From the sequence record PP886229: 64,000 bases of DNA. The stretch is one strand, 5' to 3'. Position 1 is the first letter of the stretch. Every line of letters starts with the position of its first letter. The notes below the pieces were generated by a model that was not told the origin of the DNA, ran no database searches, and saw only the letters and a list, made by a program, of their open reading frames with translations. This document shows positions 36,097 through 51,030 of this stretch, in pieces. The position numbers and the translations under genes were made by a program. Origin of the DNA: Escherichia phage vB_EcoM_E9.

Positions 36097-37272
36097 ATGG
36101 CAGTAGGTGAAATTCAAATCAGTGCCTTGCCACAAGCGGCCTTACCAGTTGATTTAAGTGATATCTTCCATCTTAAGCAAGGTGTTGAGGATAAAAGATG
36201 TACGCTTGAACAGTTGTTAGCACCTCACGCATCTCTGAGGAATAACCCTCATGGTGTAACCAAATCACAAGTGGGTCTTGATAATGTTATTAACTCTCTT
36301 CAATTAGTTGCAGCTAATAACTTATCAGATATTGTGAATGTTGCTGAGGCAAGAGCAAATCTACAAATTATGTCGTCAGAGGAAGTGAATAACTTAATTC
36401 AGCAACATATTGACGATAAAAGTAACCCACACAATACAACGAAAGCACAAGTTGGATTAAGTAATGTTCAGAACTGGACAACATCTAATCTGTACAATGA
36501 AGATGCTGATAAGTATGCTACCGCGAAAGCAGTTAATAATTTATACAAAGCTATCCAAGCGTCATATCCAGTAGGGACTATTCATCTATCTGTTAACTCT
36601 GCTAACCCATCCACTTACTTGCTTTGTGGAGGTACTTGGGAGTTAGTTTCTAAAGGTAGAGCACTAGTTGGTTATGATACAGATTCTAGACCTGTTGGTT
36701 CAACGTTTGGTTCTCAGACTGTAGCATTAACAAATAATAATTTACCAGCACATACCCACTCTATCTATCTAACAGGTGGTGGTCATACACACTCTGCAAG
36801 TGTATCTATCTCTAGTTTTGATTATGGTTCAAAAAGTACATCAACTTTTGATTACGGTACAAAAACGACTAATAGTGCTGGTGCTCACACTCACACGTTT
36901 AGTGGCACAACAAGTAATGCTGGTAACCACAACCATAGAGTCCCTATGAGGGGTAATGATAGGGGTGGCACAAACGCTATTACTGCATCTGCTGATGCTG
37001 GTGTTGGTAATGCTATGTATACTGATTTAGCTGGTGCTCACACCCATAGCTTCTCAGGTACAACTGCATCATCTGGTGCTCATAGCCATACTGTCGCAAT
37101 TGGTGCTCACAGCCACACTGTTAATATTGGTTCGCACAGTCATACAGGAACTGTTACTGTTTCTAGCTCTGAGCATACACACTCAGGGACATCTGGTTCT
37201 GTTGGTGGTGGTCAAGCTTTCAGTGTTGAGCAGCCATCTTTTGTAGTGTATGTGTGGCAGAGAACAGCTTAA
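36097..37272 (+). CDS. tail fibre protein with C-terminal His-x-His repeat region
   Basis: 391 aa; C-terminal HTHSIYLTGGGHTHSAS ... GAHSHTVAIGAHSHTVNIGSHSHTG. Confidence 0.65.
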   Translation: MAVGEIQISALPQAALPVDLSDIFHLKQGVEDKRCTLEQLLAPHASLRNNPHGVTKSQVGLDNVINSLQLVAANNLSDIVNVAEARANLQIMSSEEVNNLIQQHIDDKSNPHNTTKAQVGLSNVQNWTTSNLYNEDADKYATAKAVNNLYKAIQASYPVGTIHLSVNSANPSTYLLCGGTWELVSKGRALVGYDTDSRPVGSTFGSQTVALTNNNLPAHTHSIYLTGGGHTHSASVSISSFDYGSKSTSTFDYGTKTTNSAGAHTHTFSGTTSNAGNHNHRVPMRGNDRGGTNAITASADAGVGNAMYTDLAGAHTHSFSGTTASSGAHSHTVAIGAHSHTVNIGSHSHTGTVTVSSSEHTHSGTSGSVGGGQAFSVEQPSFVVYVWQRTA

Positions 37273-37318
37273 TTTCTTTACAGGGGCTATAAAGCCCCTT
37301 TTAAGAGGAAAATTTATA

Positions 37319-39868
37319 ATGGCAGATTACAAATTGAGTCAATTAAACTCAATCGACACAATTCGTTCAGAAGACCTATTGCACATCAGAGTTAAGAAAA
37401 GACCTGAAATGTTGGGTGACGAAGACCGTAGAATGACCTATCAAGACTTCTTAGCTTCTTTCAAACTTGAAAGATTTGTTCAGATTGCTGGTAGTACTAT
37501 GACAGGTGACTTAGGTATTGTTAAGTTACTTTATGGTGGTAAGGCAGTATTTGACCCAACAGGCTCTTCTGAGGTTACTATTGGGGATGTTTTAAAGACT
37601 TTTAAAATTAACGCAAATGGTCTTAAACTAGCTATTGCAGATGCTTCAAGGTCAGCAACTGTTTATCATACTCTGAATAAACCAAGTCCTAATGAGCTTG
37701 GGATGAGAACTAATGAAGAGAATGATGAAAGATATGCAAGGCTTGCTATCACAAATAACTTCAGCATTAGGCAAGCAATCGTAACTGATGGTGAGCAGTT
37801 AACTCTTAAGAAGGCAACCAATGCAGGTGCTTCATATATTCAAGGTAGAGATGCTAATAACCAGCAAACTTGGTATGTTGGACAGGGAAATGCAAACAGC
37901 AATAATGTTTATTTGTACAATCATACTACTGGTGCAATGTTAACCCTTGATGCAACAGCAGCATTTAATAAGTCACTTAGAATTGCTGGTCAAGTTCAAC
38001 CTTCGGATTTCTCTAACTTAGATGCCAGATACTTTACTCAGACAGTTGCTAATCAGAGATTTGCACAGTTAGCTGGTAATAACACTTTTACAGGTGCTAA
38101 TACATTTAGGACTATGAGTATTATCTCAAATGCTGCTGCTATCACACTACAATGTGCATCAGCAAACGAATCCCTGTATCTACTTGCAAAAGATTATCAA
38201 GGTGGTAACTTATGGTATGTTGGTAAAGGTAGCTCAGGTGATGGTGTAACTATCTACAACTATACCACTAACACCTCTTTGGTCTTAGATGCTGCTGGAG
38301 TATCAGCAAATAAAAATGTCAGAATCACTGGACAAGTTCAACCTTCAGATTGGGCTAACATTGACTCTAGATATATTCCGGCAGCAACATTAAGTACAAT
38401 TGCAAGAACTAATGCAAGGAATACTTTTAATGGTGTACAGACAGTTGTTACGGATAATGAAGGTCTGATTGTTAAAAACTCTACTCAGAATAGACCATTA
38501 TATATTCGTGGTGTGGACACTACTAATGTATCAAGATGGTGGATTGGTGTTGGTGGTGCTGATACGAATGATGTTACCCTAAATAACAGTTATTCTGGAA
38601 CCCAATTGGTTCTCGGGAATACAACATCATACATTAACAAAACATTGACTATTGCTGGACAAGTTCAACCTTCAGATTTCTCTAACTTAGATGCTAGATA
38701 CTTTACGCAAAGTGCTAGTGATAGCAGATACCTAAGAATCAGAAGCACTAGCTTCAATGTGGGAAACACTGATAAGTGGGCTAAAATTGCCACTGTTGTT
38801 ATGCCACAATCAGCATCCACTGCTGTTATTGAGGTATTTGGTGGGTCAGGTTTTAATATTAATACACCAAACCAAGCAGGTAAATGTGAAATTGTTCTGC
38901 GAACTTCAAATAACAACCCAAAGGGCTTAAATGTTGTTGCTTGGAGAACATCAGATAACACCATTGTCAGGGATATTGGTTATGTGAATACTTCTGGAGA
39001 CACCTATGATATTTACTATCTTGCTGGTACGTATCAAAACGGCACAACGACAAGGGTTCAGTCTTCTAGTAATGCAAGTGTACAGTTGTTTGAAGTCCCA
39101 CAGACATTTGATGATGCTCCACAAGGTATTGTGAAGGGTACAATTGCAAAATACTACACAAGTTTGCAAAAACCAACCCCTTCAGATATTGGTGCATACA
39201 CTAAAGCAGAGACTGACCAGAAAATTGCAGATGCAATTAGTGACTCTACAGACCTGAATAAAATCTACCCAGTAGGTATTGTAACGTGGTTTAACAGCAA
39301 TGTTAACCCTAATACAGCACTTCCTGGGTTAACTTGGACGTACCTGAACAATGGTGTGGGTAGAACTATTAGAATTGCAGCAGCAAATGGTTCAGATGTT
39401 GCTACAACTGGTGGTTCAGACTCTGTAACGTTATCTGTTGGTAACTTACCTTCACACACGCATAGCTTCTCTGCTACCACTTCATCATTTGATTATGGTA
39501 CTAAGACTTCTAGCACAACTGGTAACCATAACCACAACAGGGGGACTATGGAGATTACTGGTACAGTAGGTTACTTCAGAAGTGATTCTAGCAGCTTCTA
39601 CACAGCAAGTGGTGCATTCACACTTGGTAGTTCAACTGCTTCTAAAGGTTTTACTGGTTCTAACTTCACTTATGGTATCCCTGCTAACTTCAATGCGTCA
39701 AGAACTTGGTCTGGTGTAACGAATACAACAGGTAACCACAGCCACACTGTTGGTATTGGTGCTCACAGCCACACAGTTAGCGGTAACACAGGTGGTACTG
39801 GTTCTGGTTCAGCATTTAGTGTTACTAACCAGTTCTACAAGTTAATGGCTTGGGTAAGAACTGCTTAA
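37319..39868 (+). CDS. long tail fibre protein with three internal repeats and C-terminal His-x-His repeat region
   Basis: ~850 aa; repeat (R/T)I(A/T)GQVQPSD(F/W)(S/A)N(L/I)D(A/S)RY at three positions; C-terminal GNHSHTVGIGAHSHTV; ATG 37319 after AAGAGG RBS. Confidence 0.7.
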   Translation: MADYKLSQLNSIDTIRSEDLLHIRVKKRPEMLGDEDRRMTYQDFLASFKLERFVQIAGSTMTGDLGIVKLLYGGKAVFDPTGSSEVTIGDVLKTFKINANGLKLAIADASRSATVYHTLNKPSPNELGMRTNEENDERYARLAITNNFSIRQAIVTDGEQLTLKKATNAGASYIQGRDANNQQTWYVGQGNANSNNVYLYNHTTGAMLTLDATAAFNKSLRIAGQVQPSDFSNLDARYFTQTVANQRFAQLAGNNTFTGANTFRTMSIISNAAAITLQCASANESLYLLAKDYQGGNLWYVGKGSSGDGVTIYNYTTNTSLVLDAAGVSANKNVRITGQVQPSDWANIDSRYIPAATLSTIARTNARNTFNGVQTVVTDNEGLIVKNSTQNRPLYIRGVDTTNVSRWWIGVGGADTNDVTLNNSYSGTQLVLGNTTSYINKTLTIAGQVQPSDFSNLDARYFTQSASDSRYLRIRSTSFNVGNTDKWAKIATVVMPQSASTAVIEVFGGSGFNINTPNQAGKCEIVLRTSNNNPKGLNVVAWRTSDNTIVRDIGYVNTSGDTYDIYYLAGTYQNGTTTRVQSSSNASVQLFEVPQTFDDAPQGIVKGTIAKYYTSLQKPTPSDIGAYTKAETDQKIADAISDSTDLNKIYPVGIVTWFNSNVNPNTALPGLTWTYLNNGVGRTIRIAAANGSDVATTGGSDSVTLSVGNLPSHTHSFSATTSSFDYGTKTSSTTGNHNHNRGTMEITGTVGYFRSDSSSFYTASGAFTLGSSTASKGFTGSNFTYGIPANFNASRTWSGVTNTTGNHSHTVGIGAHSHTVSGNTGGTGSGSAFSVTNQFYKLMAWVRTA

Positions 39869-43650: not shown

Positions 43651-44034
43651 TCAAATACCTGTGCAGCTTCTGTTTTCTAAGAAATACTCAACACCATACA
43701 TAGCTTTTTGCATCAAATCTTCTTTAAACTGAATACGATGATTAAGCATAACCTGTACATCAATATCATCATGGTGCTTCTCTTTAATATTTGCAGATTG
43801 CAGGAAATACTCTGCAAGAACACGATACTGATAGTCAGTTACCTTATCCGTCATCTCTGTCAAAGACTCTTCAGAGATTGGTTTAAGCAACTCACCATTA
43901 GATAGAGCAACACCTTTAACAATCTGACAAGTGTCTTCTGGAACACCTGATAAGTCCACATTTGGAAGTTCTGTTGCATTGACTGGTAAATTTATTGCCA
44001 TAACCATTGCAGCAGCTAATAAAATCTTTTTCAT
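43651..44034 (-). CDS. secreted/periplasmic protein (signal peptide)
   Basis: 127 aa; N-terminal MKKILLAAAMVMAINLPVNA. Confidence 0.5.
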   Translation of the reverse strand: MKKILLAAAMVMAINLPVNATELPNVDLSGVPEDTCQIVKGVALSNGELLKPISEESLTEMTDKVTDYQYRVLAEYFLQSANIKEKHHDDIDVQVMLNHRIQFKEDLMQKAMYGVEYFLENRSCTGI

Positions 44035-44139
44035 AATGACCTCAAAGTTATATTAAATTTTGTATTACGTTGAGTATAAAAATAAGCTATAACACCTGAC
44101 TTGTCAACAGATTTTATAGCTTATTTGGCAGATTTTTTA

Positions 44140-44372
44140 TAAGGCTACTGCCATCCTTCCATACATTACCTCACCTGACCTGACCTGACCCTACCTAACA
44201 TTACCGTGCCACACCTCACTTAAAAACCCTCTTAAAAGACTCTTAAGTGATGTAATCGAATTTTTATGTAGCTCCGATTAACTACCCATACCTCACCTCA
44301 TCCAACCATACCATGCCTTACCAGACCGCACCTTACCTTACTAAAAGACCCTGTTTAAAGACCTTTTAAAAA
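44140..44372. repeat. Composite C-rich, G-poor repeat block 1: two sub-units of head motif, (Y)ACC-rich core and conserved tails
   Basis: Tails CACTTAAAAACCCTCTTAAAAGACTCTTAAGTGATG (44217-44251) and AAAAGACCCTGTTTAAAGACCTTTTAAAAAG (44342-44372) recur in block 2. Confidence 0.7.
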
Positions 44373-44373
44373 G

Positions 44374-44390
44374 GAGCCTCCGAAGAGGCT
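44374..44390 (-). terminator. Hairpin GAGCCTC-CGAA-GAGGCT directly downstream of the 44402-44842 gene
   Basis: GC-rich stem with T-run on minus strand. Confidence 0.5.
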
Positions 44391-44401
44391 ACCTAGTCAA
44401 C

Positions 44402-44844: not shown

Positions 44845-45450
<606 letters not shown>

Positions 45451-45519
45451 TTAGTTGATTGTTAAGTTGTTTGTAAAGAACCCTCAACAGAAGACTCTTT
45501 AGAAACTTGGTAGATTTTT

Positions 45520-45792
45520 AATGTGGCTACTACCATCCACCCATACCTCACAACACCATGCCATACCCGACCGGACAAGACCAGACCCTACCGCGCCAGA
45601 CCTCATTAAAAGACCCTCTTTAAAGACCTTTTAAAAAGGTAAGTCTCATTTTAATGTAGCTGAGACTAACTACCCATACCCTACTTTACCTTACCGTACC
45701 GTACTTTACCCGACCGTACCGGACAATACTTAACCCTACCTCACCCGACCGGACATCACTTAAAAACCCTCTTAAAAGACTCTTAAGTGATG
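45520..45792. repeat. Composite C-rich repeat block 2, paralogous to block 1 with sub-units in swapped order
   Basis: Shares GGCTACT(G/A)CCATCC, TGTAGCT...TAACTACCCATACC and both tail motifs with block 1. Confidence 0.7.
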
Positions 45793-45856
45793 CTGGTGAG
45801 TACCCGTTGGTTTATGCTGCTCAGTATACTCACCAAATTTTCTATGTCAACAACTT

Positions 45857-46996
45857 TTATTCATAATCTCGTATAACCAGCCCAACAGGGAACTGTAAAG
45901 ACCCCTTACGAGTCATCTTCTGGAACTGAACCGTTAAAGGCTTCCCGATAAACTCTTCAGGATGCTCAGCAAGATACTGTTTCTTCTCATGAGTAGTCTT
46001 CCATGAGACATCTACAAAGACGTTAGGAAGAGTCTCTACAACGAACTTGCCATGACCACGTTTATCGGTCTTTACACCAGTCACTTTAAACTCTTCAGTG
46101 TGCATCTTCTTGTGTTTAATCAAGAAGTATGAACGGTGACAACACTCGTAGAAGGAGTCTTCAGAGATTGAACGGTACATTGCACCTTCAAACTTAGCTT
46201 CAACCCACTTATCATGAGCTTCATCGAACTCTTCCCAAGAATTTACACGACGAGACTTAACAGGGACAACTTTACAGCCATCTCTAAAGTCATTCAATGG
46301 TGAAGTCTCAATAATATCTCTACGCTCAGGCCACGTCTTAGTACTGTCACAGATATCGTACCAGTAAAACTTGAGCAAGTGTCTGTCAGGATTGTCTTCA
46401 TTTTTAATCATAGAGACAATATCTTCTAAGTCCCACCCATGAGCATAAATCTCTCCATCAAATTCATCAACATCTTTGTGGAGCCTTAACATTGCCATAA
46501 TGTCAGGTATTAGTTCAGTAGGGATTTTGTAAACAGTATTTTCACGAGAATATGCTGTGAATACACTGCCAATACTTAAGTGCCTTGAAATCCTACAACG
46601 GACACCATCAAGTTTCGGTTGAGCATCAGCAGGGAACTTCAGATACTTCGCATGACTAACCTTTGCAGCATCATGAGCAAGCTGTACACCTACCTTCTCA
46701 GTATTCTGTGCAGACTCTTTTGTGTAAGCATAACCTTTGCGGTCAACTTGTTTTTTATACTTAGCAGCAACTTCAAAGAGAGCTTGCTGTTCAGCGTTAC
46801 GCTCGTTCTTTTTACCGATGTTTTTAGGTTCTGCTGTATACTCTTCAAACATCATCTTGCCATTTTCTTTACCGTAGGTTGTAATAACTTTGTCACCTAC
46901 AGCGACACATGACCAGACGTTAAAAGAGCCATCTTTATTTTGTTTGTATAGAGTTGTCATTTTATTCCTCTGAGTGATACCAAGTGTTGCAAGCAT
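45857..46996 (-). CDS. ATP-dependent DNA ligase
   Basis: KxDG adenylation motif (PKLDGVR), EGAMYR and FLIKHKK motifs. Confidence 0.7.
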   Translation of the reverse strand: MLATLGITQRNKMTTLYKQNKDGSFNVWSCVAVGDKVITTYGKENGKMMFEEYTAEPKNIGKKNERNAEQQALFEVAAKYKKQVDRKGYAYTKESAQNTEKVGVQLAHDAAKVSHAKYLKFPADAQPKLDGVRCRISRHLSIGSVFTAYSRENTVYKIPTELIPDIMAMLRLHKDVDEFDGEIYAHGWDLEDIVSMIKNEDNPDRHLLKFYWYDICDSTKTWPERRDIIETSPLNDFRDGCKVVPVKSRRVNSWEEFDEAHDKWVEAKFEGAMYRSISEDSFYECCHRSYFLIKHKKMHTEEFKVTGVKTDKRGHGKFVVETLPNVFVDVSWKTTHEKKQYLAEHPEEFIGKPLTVQFQKMTRKGSLQFPVGLVIRDYE

Positions 46997-47153
46997 TACA
47001 TGCGTAAAGCTCTAAGTCATTTTTATCTGGTTTATGAAAACAGTTTGCTCCGCAGTGGCAACGAAACGGCTTTCCACCAACTGTCAGGATGAAAGATTGA
47101 ACCTTTCCATCAGGAGTTCGTACAGCATTTTTATGCTTATCTTCTTTGTTCAT
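46962..47153 (-). CDS. small zinc-finger protein
   Basis: 63 aa with CHC ... C ... CNAC cysteines. Confidence 0.45.
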   Translation of the reverse strand: MNKEDKHKNAVRTPDGKVQSFILTVGGKPFRCHCGANCFHKPDKNDLELYACNACNTWYHSEE

Positions 47154-47366: not shown

Positions 47367-47603
47367 TCACTCAATAACCGTAGTATGTGATTGACCATTT
47401 TTGCCATAGCTATAAGATGTTGTTGTTTGAGAGTTTGGACATCTGACAACAACAATATCTCTGCTTATGGCATCGCCATGTAACTTGTAGACTTTGCAAT
47501 CTTGCATCTCTGGTGGGAGGCTATAAGAAGCATTTTTATCCTCGTAAGAGGGATTGCAGCCAGCTAGAAAAATAACACCAAGCACAATTACTGCTTTCCA
47601 CAT
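47367..47603 (-). CDS. small lipoprotein (superinfection-exclusion candidate)
   Basis: 78 aa; signal peptide with lipobox LAGC (MWKAVIVLGVIFLAGCNPSY). Confidence 0.6.
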   Translation of the reverse strand: MWKAVIVLGVIFLAGCNPSYEDKNASYSLPPEMQDCKVYKLHGDAISRDIVVVRCPNSQTTTSYSYGKNGQSHTTVIE

Positions 47604-47617
47604 AGCACTTCTCCTAT

Positions 47618-48209: not shown

Positions 48210-48270
48210 AATCGCTCCTATATAAGATATTGTATAAGGTACTCTTCCATGAGCACCTTGTCAATACTAA

Positions 48271-50970
48271 TTAGTGAACCTCAAGCCAGCTTTTACCAAC
48301 CTTACCAGTACCTGTAACAAGTGTTTCTTTCTTAAGACCTAAGTTCTTAGAAGCTTGTCCATAATACCAGTCAGTAACTGCTTTCACTTCTGCCGTCATA
48401 CTTTCTGGACATTCCCAGCTTGTTTCATCGTGATATGCGCAGAGCAAACGAGCACCAATAGCTGGTTGACGACCATTCAACTTCATCAAACCTTCGTCAA
48501 TCATACGACGACAAGCAAGGTTAATTGCCTCGTTTTGAATCTGAGCCTCCGAACCCATAAGCAAATAATTCAATAGCTTATGTGGAGATTTACACCATAA
48601 CCAAGCTCCAGCAACCTTTACAAAACCCCCTTTAGAGATTGCAGCAGTCTTACCAAAAACCTCTTCAAGTGCCTTTTTAGTCGCTTTGTAGTCAGCTTCT
48701 AAGTCATCCAGCAGCTTCTTAATTTTAGGCAAACGAATAAAGTAAGTCTGTTTGGTCAGTGCACCTTCCTGAGTAGTTGCAGCTTTAATCGTCTTAGCAA
48801 ACTTCTCATCACCTGCACCGAACAGCAGTGCATAGATACCATTCTTAGCTTTCTTACGACCCTTACTAATCTCATGAAGAAGATTCTCATCCTGAGTAGC
48901 TCGGCAAGTCAAGATATCCTGCTCATCATTCAAGCTAAAGTAAATACTGTTCAGTGTGTGTGCATCAGTCCCTGAATAGACAACGTAAAGGTCATTCTCA
49001 GAGTCATAGCGTAGGTACTTATCAATCTCTGGATTGAGGTACTCATCAAAGTGTTTGCAGTAATAGCATCCATCTTCTTGACGAATAAACTCAATCTCTT
49101 CTTTACCTTGCGTTACCGCTTTGGTGAAGTCTTTGTCACCCATAAAGTTACAAAGAAGAACTAGCTGGGCTGAGTTCATGTCTACAGAGACAACGTTAGT
49201 ACCTTCTTCACAAATCCACACTGCCCTCATTGGTTCCCCATAGACAGCAGCACCAGACGGTACGTTTACAATACCATACTGTGTCATACGTCCAGTTGAA
49301 GTACCAAATACCATTGCACCAGCACTAAGGCGACCATCAGGACGAATCTGGTTCAGCCAACCTTTTTCATCATCCTTTGAGTTCTCAATAGTTCTGCGTC
49401 GGTGCATCAAAGTATAGTACTTAGCAATCTTCTGTCCAAGCTCACCTTCAATCGTATCATAAGATGATTCAGTAAGTTTTGGTGAAGTACGGATTAAGCA
49501 AGGCTCAAGCAAATCTGTGTACTTCTTCACAGACCAGTTATGTTCAATGTACTGGACACCTTCATGTTCAACATAACTCAAACCACACCGTTCCACCATC
49601 TCATCCCACTTAGGATGTTTTGTAATCATCTTTTTGTTGTCTTTGAAGCGACAAACCTTAACAGGACGACCATCAGAGTCTTTCTTATAGTTCCAGTCAT
49701 CTGGAATCCAACCAACTGATTTCAAGTAGTCTTTAACAACTGCTACCTGAGTCATACGAGAAACTTCGAACTCAATTGGTGTATATGGTGCATCAATCAA
49801 ACCTGTGTAGCGACTTGACTCAAGCTTAAAGTGGTTAACAACATGACTGTTATAGTACTTCACAGTTTTAACTGTTTTTACTGGCTTCCAGTCTTTGCAC
49901 TTCTTACCAATCTTTGCATTCAACTCATTGCAAATTGCACGAGCATCCTTCATTGCTACAAAGCCTTCCTTGTGCTCTTCGCCAGTTACAGAGTTGGTTG
50001 GTGTATAGCAATTCCGCTTTTCAATGTTAAAAATCTTTGTAGTTGGCTTACCAAATGGCTTGATTTCATATGTCTGCATCTCACCGTTACGTACCTGCTG
50101 ACGATACTTTGTCTTAGGGTACTTGGTAATTCTCTTCAGTCCATCTGCATGACCTAATGCTTCAACATACTCATTCCAAGCTTTTGCAAATTCTTCTCCA
50201 GTGACTTTACCTTTGGTCTTAATAGTTGGAGGAAGATGTGGTTCAACTTCTGAAGCAAGCTCATTAGTCAACTTGTCAAGTTCCTTTACATGGAACTCCA
50301 TAAGTTCTTTATCAGCTTTCCAACCATTGATAGCTTGTTGACTCATCCAGAAAGATGTTTCTTTAGCTCGCATGTAGGTTTCATAAGTATCTACGCCACA
50401 CTTCTTCAGCTTGAGATATTCATTATCCAGTGCGCGTTTAGTTTTGGCGTTAATACGGATATCTTCCACAACACGAGTGAAGATTTCTGCATTCCACACA
50501 CCCCAATGTTCAATCTCTGGTTTACGTACACCAACACGAGCACCCCATGCAGCCAAGCCATGAGCACCTTTATAACCTTTTGGAGTTGGTCTATCCATCC
50601 ACTGAACACGGGACTGGATAAGAGAATCCTGAAAGAAATTACTCCACGGCTTACACTTTGGATTATCAAAGTTCCACAAATCAGGTGCAATGTGATTGAA
50701 AACCCACCAGTCATACCCTAGACCATTATGGATGCAAAGCCGTTTTGCCTTTAACGCAAACTCAACACCTTCACGCAAACCACCCTTAATGTACTTGGTA
50801 TACTTGTGACCGAGGATAGGCTCATCTGTAAAGACCCATACAGGTGGCTCTTCATCGTCAGATTTATAGTCTGCGAAAGCCATTACGTGTACTTTAGTGA
50901 ACTCAAGGAGTAAACCATCAGTTTCTGTATCACCAACTAAATGTAAGTTTTTAAAATCTACGTTTTCCAT
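48271..50970 (-). CDS. DNA polymerase, family A, with 3'-5' exonuclease domain
   Basis: Exo motif VGDTETDG near the N-terminus; YHDE motif C near the C-terminus; ATG at 50970 follows a GAGGGAG RBS. Confidence 0.8.
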   Translation of the reverse strand: MENVDFKNLHLVGDTETDGLLLEFTKVHVMAFADYKSDDEEPPVWVFTDEPILGHKYTKYIKGGLREGVEFALKAKRLCIHNGLGYDWWVFNHIAPDLWNFDNPKCKPWSNFFQDSLIQSRVQWMDRPTPKGYKGAHGLAAWGARVGVRKPEIEHWGVWNAEIFTRVVEDIRINAKTKRALDNEYLKLKKCGVDTYETYMRAKETSFWMSQQAINGWKADKELMEFHVKELDKLTNELASEVEPHLPPTIKTKGKVTGEEFAKAWNEYVEALGHADGLKRITKYPKTKYRQQVRNGEMQTYEIKPFGKPTTKIFNIEKRNCYTPTNSVTGEEHKEGFVAMKDARAICNELNAKIGKKCKDWKPVKTVKTVKYYNSHVVNHFKLESSRYTGLIDAPYTPIEFEVSRMTQVAVVKDYLKSVGWIPDDWNYKKDSDGRPVKVCRFKDNKKMITKHPKWDEMVERCGLSYVEHEGVQYIEHNWSVKKYTDLLEPCLIRTSPKLTESSYDTIEGELGQKIAKYYTLMHRRRTIENSKDDEKGWLNQIRPDGRLSAGAMVFGTSTGRMTQYGIVNVPSGAAVYGEPMRAVWICEEGTNVVSVDMNSAQLVLLCNFMGDKDFTKAVTQGKEEIEFIRQEDGCYYCKHFDEYLNPEIDKYLRYDSENDLYVVYSGTDAHTLNSIYFSLNDEQDILTCRATQDENLLHEISKGRKKAKNGIYALLFGAGDEKFAKTIKAATTQEGALTKQTYFIRLPKIKKLLDDLEADYKATKKALEEVFGKTAAISKGGFVKVAGAWLWCKSPHKLLNYLLMGSEAQIQNEAINLACRRMIDEGLMKLNGRQPAIGARLLCAYHDETSWECPESMTAEVKAVTDWYYGQASKNLGLKKETLVTGTGKVGKSWLEVH

Positions 50971-51030
50971 TTTTACTCCCTCTAAAATCATTAACCTCAT
51001 ACATTACTGCAAAAAATTATAAAAAGCAAG

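Follow-up and report, generated by a model that had tools for sequence, protein, structure and literature searches.

PHROG 902, a widespread family of small predicted phage lipoproteins, and its member beside the replication genes of Escherichia phage vB_EcoM_E9

What does a virulent phage gain from a small lipoprotein gene lodged among its replication genes? The question is raised by a 64,000-nucleotide stretch of Escherichia phage vB_EcoM_E9 (PP886229; hereafter the window), which belongs to a Felixounavirus-like (Felix O1-type) myophage genome. An earlier note on this sequence had read an open reading frame (ORF) of 78 amino acids (aa), with a signal peptide and the lipobox LAGC, as the gene for a small phage lipoprotein beside the replication genes, and had suggested an exclusion function, citing lipoproteins such as T5 Llp that mask the phage's own receptor. 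The first part of this proposal stands: the ORF exists as described at 47367..47603, ligase and polymerase genes flank it, and both the conservation of its lipobox and its low dN/dS ratio support a gene. The masking of the phage's own receptor is not supported by our comparisons, and a broader exclusion or envelope-protection role is possible.

The predicted lipoprotein gene and its setting

The gene is complete on the minus strand, with an ATG start and a stop codon included in 47367..47603. The 14-nt intergenic spacer that precedes it (47604..47617, minus strand) bears, as read from the sequence, an AGGAG ribosome-binding site: on the coding strand, this Shine-Dalgarno element lies 7 nt upstream of the ATG. 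The full 78-aa translation is MWKAVIVLGVIFLAGCNPSYEDKNASYSLPPEMQDCKVYKLHGDAISRDIVVVRCPNSQTTTSYSYGKNGQSHTTVIE, which splits after the signal and lipobox part into MWKAVIVLGVIFLAGC|NPSYEDKNASYSLPPEMQDCKVYKLHGDAISRDIVVVRCPNSQTTTSYSYGKNGQSHTTVIE. On the same strand, the signal peptide and lipobox, MWKAVIVLGVIFLAGC, occupy 47556..47603 and end with Cys16 (codon at 47556..47558), the predicted lipid-attachment residue. The predicted mature periplasmic part comprises the 62 aa after Cys16 (47370..47555), with a short tether and a small beta-rich domain carrying the motif VVRCPNSQTTT.

The N-terminus agrees with a lipoprotein rule of the PROSITE PS51257 (LPAM) type, which calls for an N-terminal basic residue, an uncharged hydrophobic stretch and the pattern [LVI][ASTVI][GAS]C with its Cys at position 15-35. 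Here these elements are K3, the stretch AVIVLGVIFLAG and F-L-A-G-C, that is, LAGC16; matches to LPAM_1 were obtained in 6 family members. Taken alone, the lipobox pattern is weak evidence, near chance level: the rule retains 2 ORFs in the window, where shuffled windows give 0.68 +/- 0.81, and one of the two, an antisense ORF with a TTG start within the tail-fibre gene, is spurious. A background of about 0.7 pattern per shuffled window is what one would invoke to explain the ORF as a chance frame with a lipobox-like pattern rather than a functional gene. However, the ORF is validated because it is conserved across a family, and not by its lipobox match alone. The lipobox and the two cysteines persist in hundreds of diverged homologues, the ribosome-binding site is good, and the median dN/dS of the mature part in 22 Felix-like orthologues is 0.06, which shows that the gene is under strong purifying selection. 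On these conservation data the chance reading, to which we give a negligible probability, can be regarded as already refuted. A canonical lipobox, most often LAGC, LTGC or LVGC, was found in at least 135 of the 142 members with a locatable core motif (out of 145 diverse members). Judging from its sequence, the product is almost certainly a small lipid-anchored periplasmic protein.

On one side of the gene lies an ATP-dependent DNA ligase gene (45857..46996, minus strand; Pfam DNA_ligase_A_M) and on the other a family A DNA polymerase gene (48271..51000, minus strand); the lipoprotein gene sits between them within a packed run of small minus-strand genes. The surrounding 1.4 kb shares 98% identity with Escherichia phage vB_EcoM_D4, and of the 255 phage records that it matches, nearly all are Escherichia, Salmonella, Shigella or Citrobacter phages of the Felix-like group. 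Relatives annotate the gene as a CDS encoding a 'hypothetical protein'. A scan for promoter and terminator consensus sequences gave matches at chance level and is silent on expression timing; it is the position of the gene that points to early or middle expression, together with the polymerase-ligase cluster. A replication-gene setting is observed in three unrelated phage groups: the neighbours are ligase and polymerase in the window, a replicative helicase in Acinetobacter phage BP10, and an origin-binding protein, a helicase and a ligase in a T5-like Vibrio phage. When all ORFs within +/-4 kb were compared across 24 diverse loci, no gene family accompanied the lipoprotein gene outside the Felix-like group: the gene is a stand-alone module.

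The PHROG 902 family: architecture and distribution

The window protein matches the profile of PHROG 902 with E = 4.2e-17, its residues 1-76 aligning with profile positions 8-87 of 118. The family is already catalogued, as function-unknown, and members elsewhere are labelled 'Lipoprotein' or 'putative lipoprotein'; relatives in BFVD bear the name 'Lipoprotein' in Yersinia, Vibrio, Aeromonas and Acinetobacter phages. A search of the literature for a characterised PHROG 902 homologue returned none, nor any member with a tested function, and the properties of the family differ from those of every characterised phage lipoprotein. A profile search of 1.84 billion representative proteins retrieved 670 clusters (50% identity) at E <= 0.001, of which 116 reach E <= 1e-10.

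Two cysteines, C36 and C55 in window numbering, are invariant across 145 diverse members and are predicted to form a disulfide. The lipobox Cys, P30, P56, T60, G67 and K68 are at least 90% conserved in the same set, and the family consensus reads Y-x-L-P-x-E-L-x-D-C-K-x-Y ... V-V-R-C-P-N-S-x-T-T-T-x-Y-x-x-G-K. The spacing between the lipid-bearing Cys and the first core Cys is almost fixed (median 20 residues, range 17-25), so the domain would be held close to the membrane. Such a conserved architecture points to one binding function near a membrane. AlphaFold2 modelled the full-length protein with moderate confidence (pLDDT 72) and the mature part, with five short beta-strands, at a pLDDT of 69. 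The family also includes sub-types: 24 of 135 members have a second Cys pair (CGKNC), others have C-terminal extensions (VVIDGVxY) or a second small Cys-pair domain, and three members (P0036, P0039 and P0093) have in common a conserved C-terminal tail, LTxEExKALGL.

The anchor itself varies. In the window protein, the residue at +2 of the lipid-bearing Cys is Asn and not the Asp retention signal. Asp at this position retains lipoproteins in the inner membrane of E. coli, a rule that was set up for this species and from which other hosts may differ. Among 135 members the +2 residue is most often S (23), followed by D (22), E (22), T (18), N (13) and others. An enterobacterial-phage example of Asp is the member of Pectobacterium phage CB7, which reads C-D-N, a would-be inner-membrane retention signal in E. 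coli, and homologue L045 (3953-4294) has an N-terminal transmembrane anchor in place of the lipobox. Since the anchor type varies in this way, the target may be reachable from either membrane, which argues for a periplasmic target over the periplasmic face of one outer-membrane protein.

Scans of the window protein and 145 relatives against Pfam, NCBIfam and PADLOC detected no family beyond the generic lipid-attachment signal. A PF16225 tag carried by a precomputed table was not reproduced by hmmscan at E <= 10. A sequence search of the PDB with the family profile (E <= 10) gave one unrelated match only, and a PDB fold search retrieved no similar solved structure. We also considered the entry-exclusion lipoprotein TrbK and rejected it: one relative (P0006) scores 14.3 bits, below the cut-off of 23, over residues 9-43 at the signal-peptide end, and the window protein itself does not match the TrbK profile.

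A tblastn search found the family in 598 phage records, almost always in single copy. By host, these are phages of Vibrio (295 records), Escherichia (126), Salmonella (57), Shigella (22), Acinetobacter (18), Aeromonas (13), Citrobacter (11), Erwinia (6) and others. Among the phages that carry it are Felix-like myophages, Acinetobacter phages of the genus Obolenskvirus, Certrevirus (Vequintavirinae), jumbo phages of about 350 kb, Acinetobacter phage ME3, T5-like Vibrio siphophages, and Aeromonas phages Aeh1 and phiAS5, which we take to be T4-like. No family member is present in 5,426 complete E. coli genomes. Furthermore, the motif VVRCPNSxT[TS] yielded a single confirmed locus, in Hylemonella gracilis, among 185,579 bacterial and archaeal species genomes (one each), in a scan that was based on a 13-sequence alignment and that members with a diverged motif escape. 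Because it is absent from the E. coli genomes and has one locus in the species-genome scan, the family is essentially one of virulent phages of Gram-negative bacteria, almost confined to these rather than to prophages.

The sole bacterial-genome member from the motif scan, in Hylemonella gracilis ATCC 19624 (L006 5983-6261), adjoins a 488-aa ORF with a signal-peptide-like N-terminus, a regulator-like ORF of the helix-turn-helix type and a large ORF whose repeats resemble coiled coils; the locus has the look of a mobile island more than that of a typical prophage.

Disrupted alleles also occur. Two frameshifted alleles (P0012 and P0013) encode 64-aa products that diverge after about residue 45, and in Salmonella phage HMD-P8 (PQ568382.1 33131-33363) the lipoprotein match is split in two pieces. 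Since frameshift alleles exist in nature, the gene is dispensable for propagation, as expected of an accessory function that is dispensable in culture.

Candidate roles in the envelope of the infected cell

The exclusion lipoproteins Llp of T5 and Rtp45 each block the outer-membrane protein that their own siphophage uses as its receptor, which for T5 is FhuA (PMC12685063). A protein of the Llp/Cor/Rtp45 type would bind the periplasmic face of the receptor used by its own phage, cause an allosteric change and thereby prevent the binding of further virions and of released progeny. The window protein has the same general format. With T5 Llp it shares a total length of some 77-78 aa, a lipobox, a pair of cysteines in the mature part, a virulent phage as carrier and a predicted location on the periplasmic side of the outer membrane, for which the Asn at +2 also speaks. 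Cor (of T1, phi80 and N15) and Rtp45 are likewise small single-disulfide lipoproteins acting from the periplasmic side; all have a mature part of about 60 residues with a beta-rich domain, and all are probably expressed early (PMC12685063).

The likeness, however, ends with the format. Aligned by hhalign with T5 Llp (a query 100% identical to record X75922), the family profile matches over residues 1-18 only, that is, over the signal peptide; with T1 Cor, it matches over 19 columns, again the signal peptide. Neither Llp nor Cor is thus homologous to the mature domain, and the PDB-wide searches, the comparison relied on for Rtp45, gave no sequence or fold match. The Llp family is narrow, with 34 T5-like records that are all at least 90% identical, as against the many host genera and tail types of PHROG 902, and the inner-membrane-type anchors of some members do not fit a protein acting on an outer-membrane receptor.

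The location of the gene differs as well. T1 cor directly follows tail genes, unlike the window gene, which lies in a replication cluster about 7.5 kb from the tail-fibre gene (37250..39868, plus strand). In Felix-like phages, the lipoprotein is mostly at least 90% identical, versus mostly 60-80% for the tail fibre (94.9% versus 69% in phage LMP25): the lipoprotein gene shows neither linkage to nor co-variation with the tail-fibre gene. In the T5-like Vibrio phage with a family member, no Llp-like lipoprotein was found beside the tail-fibre genes, a result that does not discriminate between the readings. Finally, the targets of Cor and Rtp45 are FhuA or LptD, to which their own siphophages bind as receptors, whereas Felixounaviruses need the LPS core oligosaccharide for adsorption (PMC13196588). 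Since the LPS core is their receptor, Llp-style masking of a protein receptor is unlikely, and a protein on the periplasmic face cannot mask the LPS core as Llp masks FhuA. We thus leave only a small probability to the mechanism for which the earlier note had cited T5 Llp.

A second family of small phage-encoded outer-membrane lipoproteins is that of the o-spanins (Rz1 family), and in Felix O1-like phages the lysis genes lie dispersed over the genome (PMC4319497); both observations could be counted in favor of a role in lysis, either as an o-spanin (Rz1 equivalent) or as a periplasmic regulator of lysis timing. Citrobacter phage Moogle nevertheless has a separate, overlapping o-spanin/i-spanin pair (Moogle121/122) near rIIB, and the group that annotated this genome, specialists in lysis genes, left the PHROG 902 homologue, Moogle40, as hypothetical. 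Our lipobox scan of Moogle hit the spanin genes Moogle121/122 among annotated genes, other matches falling outside annotated genes or on internal starts. The T5-like Vibrio phage similarly has its own spanin pair, about 41 kb from the family member. In contrast to genuine o-spanin genes, the lipoprotein gene has no i-spanin partner: no i-spanin-like membrane-protein gene lies beside it in the window or in the 24 diverse loci compared, and the neighbouring ORFs of the window are small, lack conservation from phage to phage and, to judge by their translations, encode no hydrophobic stretch. Nor is the lipoprotein proline-rich. The spanin reading is largely refuted, and a lysis role of either kind is very improbable.

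We favor, tentatively and with low confidence, a post-adsorption exclusion or an envelope-protection function, which by analogy would be nearer to T4 Spackle (Sp) and Imm than to T5 Llp. Sec export, lipidation by Lgt and cleavage by LspA at Cys16 would yield a 63-residue lipoprotein, probably synthesized early or midway in infection with the polymerase-ligase cluster and, given its Asn at +2, sorted to the outer membrane. Its disulfide-stabilised, membrane-proximal beta mini-domain would face the periplasm, and its ligand may be some conserved component of the periplasm or envelope and not a receptor particular to this phage. As the motif is kept across differing hosts, receptors and tail types, this target would be one conserved across gamma-proteobacterial hosts or across phages. 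The infected cell could in this way be shielded from a second attack after adsorption, for example by a block of tail-tip or peptidoglycan-hydrolase action or of DNA entry. T4 Sp and Imm, made early by a virulent phage with a contractile tail, work in the envelope and block a second infection once adsorption has taken place; Sp is a soluble periplasmic protein and Imm an inner-membrane protein, neither being a lipoprotein. The analogy is a functional one only, the window protein having no sequence or fold relation to any solved structure. It counts against an exclusion or protection function that no characterised homologue ties the family to exclusion and that both structural models are of moderate quality.

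Conservation across hosts fits equally well the inhibition of a conserved host enzyme for reasons other than superinfection. The main rival of post-adsorption exclusion is a takeover of the host envelope unrelated to other phages: the lipoprotein would inhibit or redirect a conserved periplasmic or outer-membrane factor of the host, such as a peptidoglycan hydrolase, an envelope-stress sensor, the outer-membrane biogenesis machinery or an envelope-associated defence, and so keep the cell intact and productive until programmed lysis. A motif kept across phages of Vibrio, Acinetobacter, Aeromonas and Enterobacterales suggests a target conserved among these hosts, and a stand-alone gene in a family restricted to virulent phages is also consistent with such a takeover. 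In addition, the conserved loop CPNSxTTT next to the disulfide is reminiscent of the loops with which periplasmic lysozyme inhibitors act. However, neither the window protein nor any of 145 family members has a Pfam or NCBIfam match to MliC/PliC or Ivy, or a match to any other Pfam, NCBIfam or PADLOC model with a bearing on function, and the natural frameshift alleles show the gene to be non-essential. We regard this takeover as a serious contender, if a rather unlikely one, and reserve part of the probability for functions outside all the readings considered here.

The evidence in hand establishes nothing surprising. We may nevertheless formulate a bolder hypothesis, decidedly doubtful as it stands: PHROG 902 could be an unrecognised and widespread class of periplasmic effectors of virulent phages, in which a mini-domain of about 45 residues, tethered by a lipid and locked by a disulfide, neutralises a single conserved envelope component, be it of Gram-negative bacteria or of incoming phages, and gives the infected cell a broad, receptor-independent protection by a mechanism unlike that of every characterised exclusion lipoprotein. 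Llp, Cor and Rtp45 represent the best-understood route by which phages remodel the cell surface from inside, and the known examples are narrow, each directed at one protein receptor. PHROG 902 is the opposite: it is large, conserved in sequence and independent of receptor-binding genes, and its carriers include phages with glycan receptors. Should it indeed serve in exclusion or envelope protection, many lytic phages would exploit a conserved weak spot of the Gram-negative envelope; the design of phage cocktails would then be affected, as co-infecting therapeutic phages could exclude one another. A more ordinary role would still provide a functional label for several hundred clusters of 'hypothetical proteins'.

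Additional observations on the cluster and its relatives

Several other elements of the minus-strand cluster deserve mention. Directly upstream of the ligase gene, 46962..47153 (minus strand) encodes a 63-aa Cys-rich protein (CHC...C...CNAC) with a zinc-ribbon-like look, which matches PHROG 5768, a function-unknown family. A second exported protein of the cluster may be encoded by a 127-aa ORF at 43651..44034 (minus strand), which has a cleavable-looking Sec signal peptide, MKKILLAAAMVMAINLPVNA|TE, matches another function-unknown family (PHROG 4332) and is kept in divergent Felix-like contigs. Two unusually long gaps without a convincing ORF, 45448..45856 and 44035..44401, interrupt an otherwise packed cluster: the former contains a near-consensus promoter, TTGACA-16-TATACT, at 45850..45823 (minus strand), and in the latter, at 44390..44375 (minus strand), a GC-rich hairpin precedes a T run. 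At 48210..48270, between the small ORFs and the polymerase gene, relatives differ by insertions of about 120-730 bp, and several have an HNH homing endonuclease annotated under the match to this region, in the polymerase's place.

Two observations concern other phage records. Besides its family member and its o-spanin, the T5-like Vibrio phage 70E37-4 (L048) encodes two further small predicted lipoproteins in its tRNA region, at 64025-64264 and 66777-66953. Felix-like matches were also found in records named 'Staphylococcus phage SA1' (GU169904.1 93734-95257) and 'Campylobacter phage A126' (MG065668.1 39-1250), with 93.6% DNA identity in the ligase region and 70.8% protein identity in the tail fibre; both are probably chimeric or mislabelled database entries.
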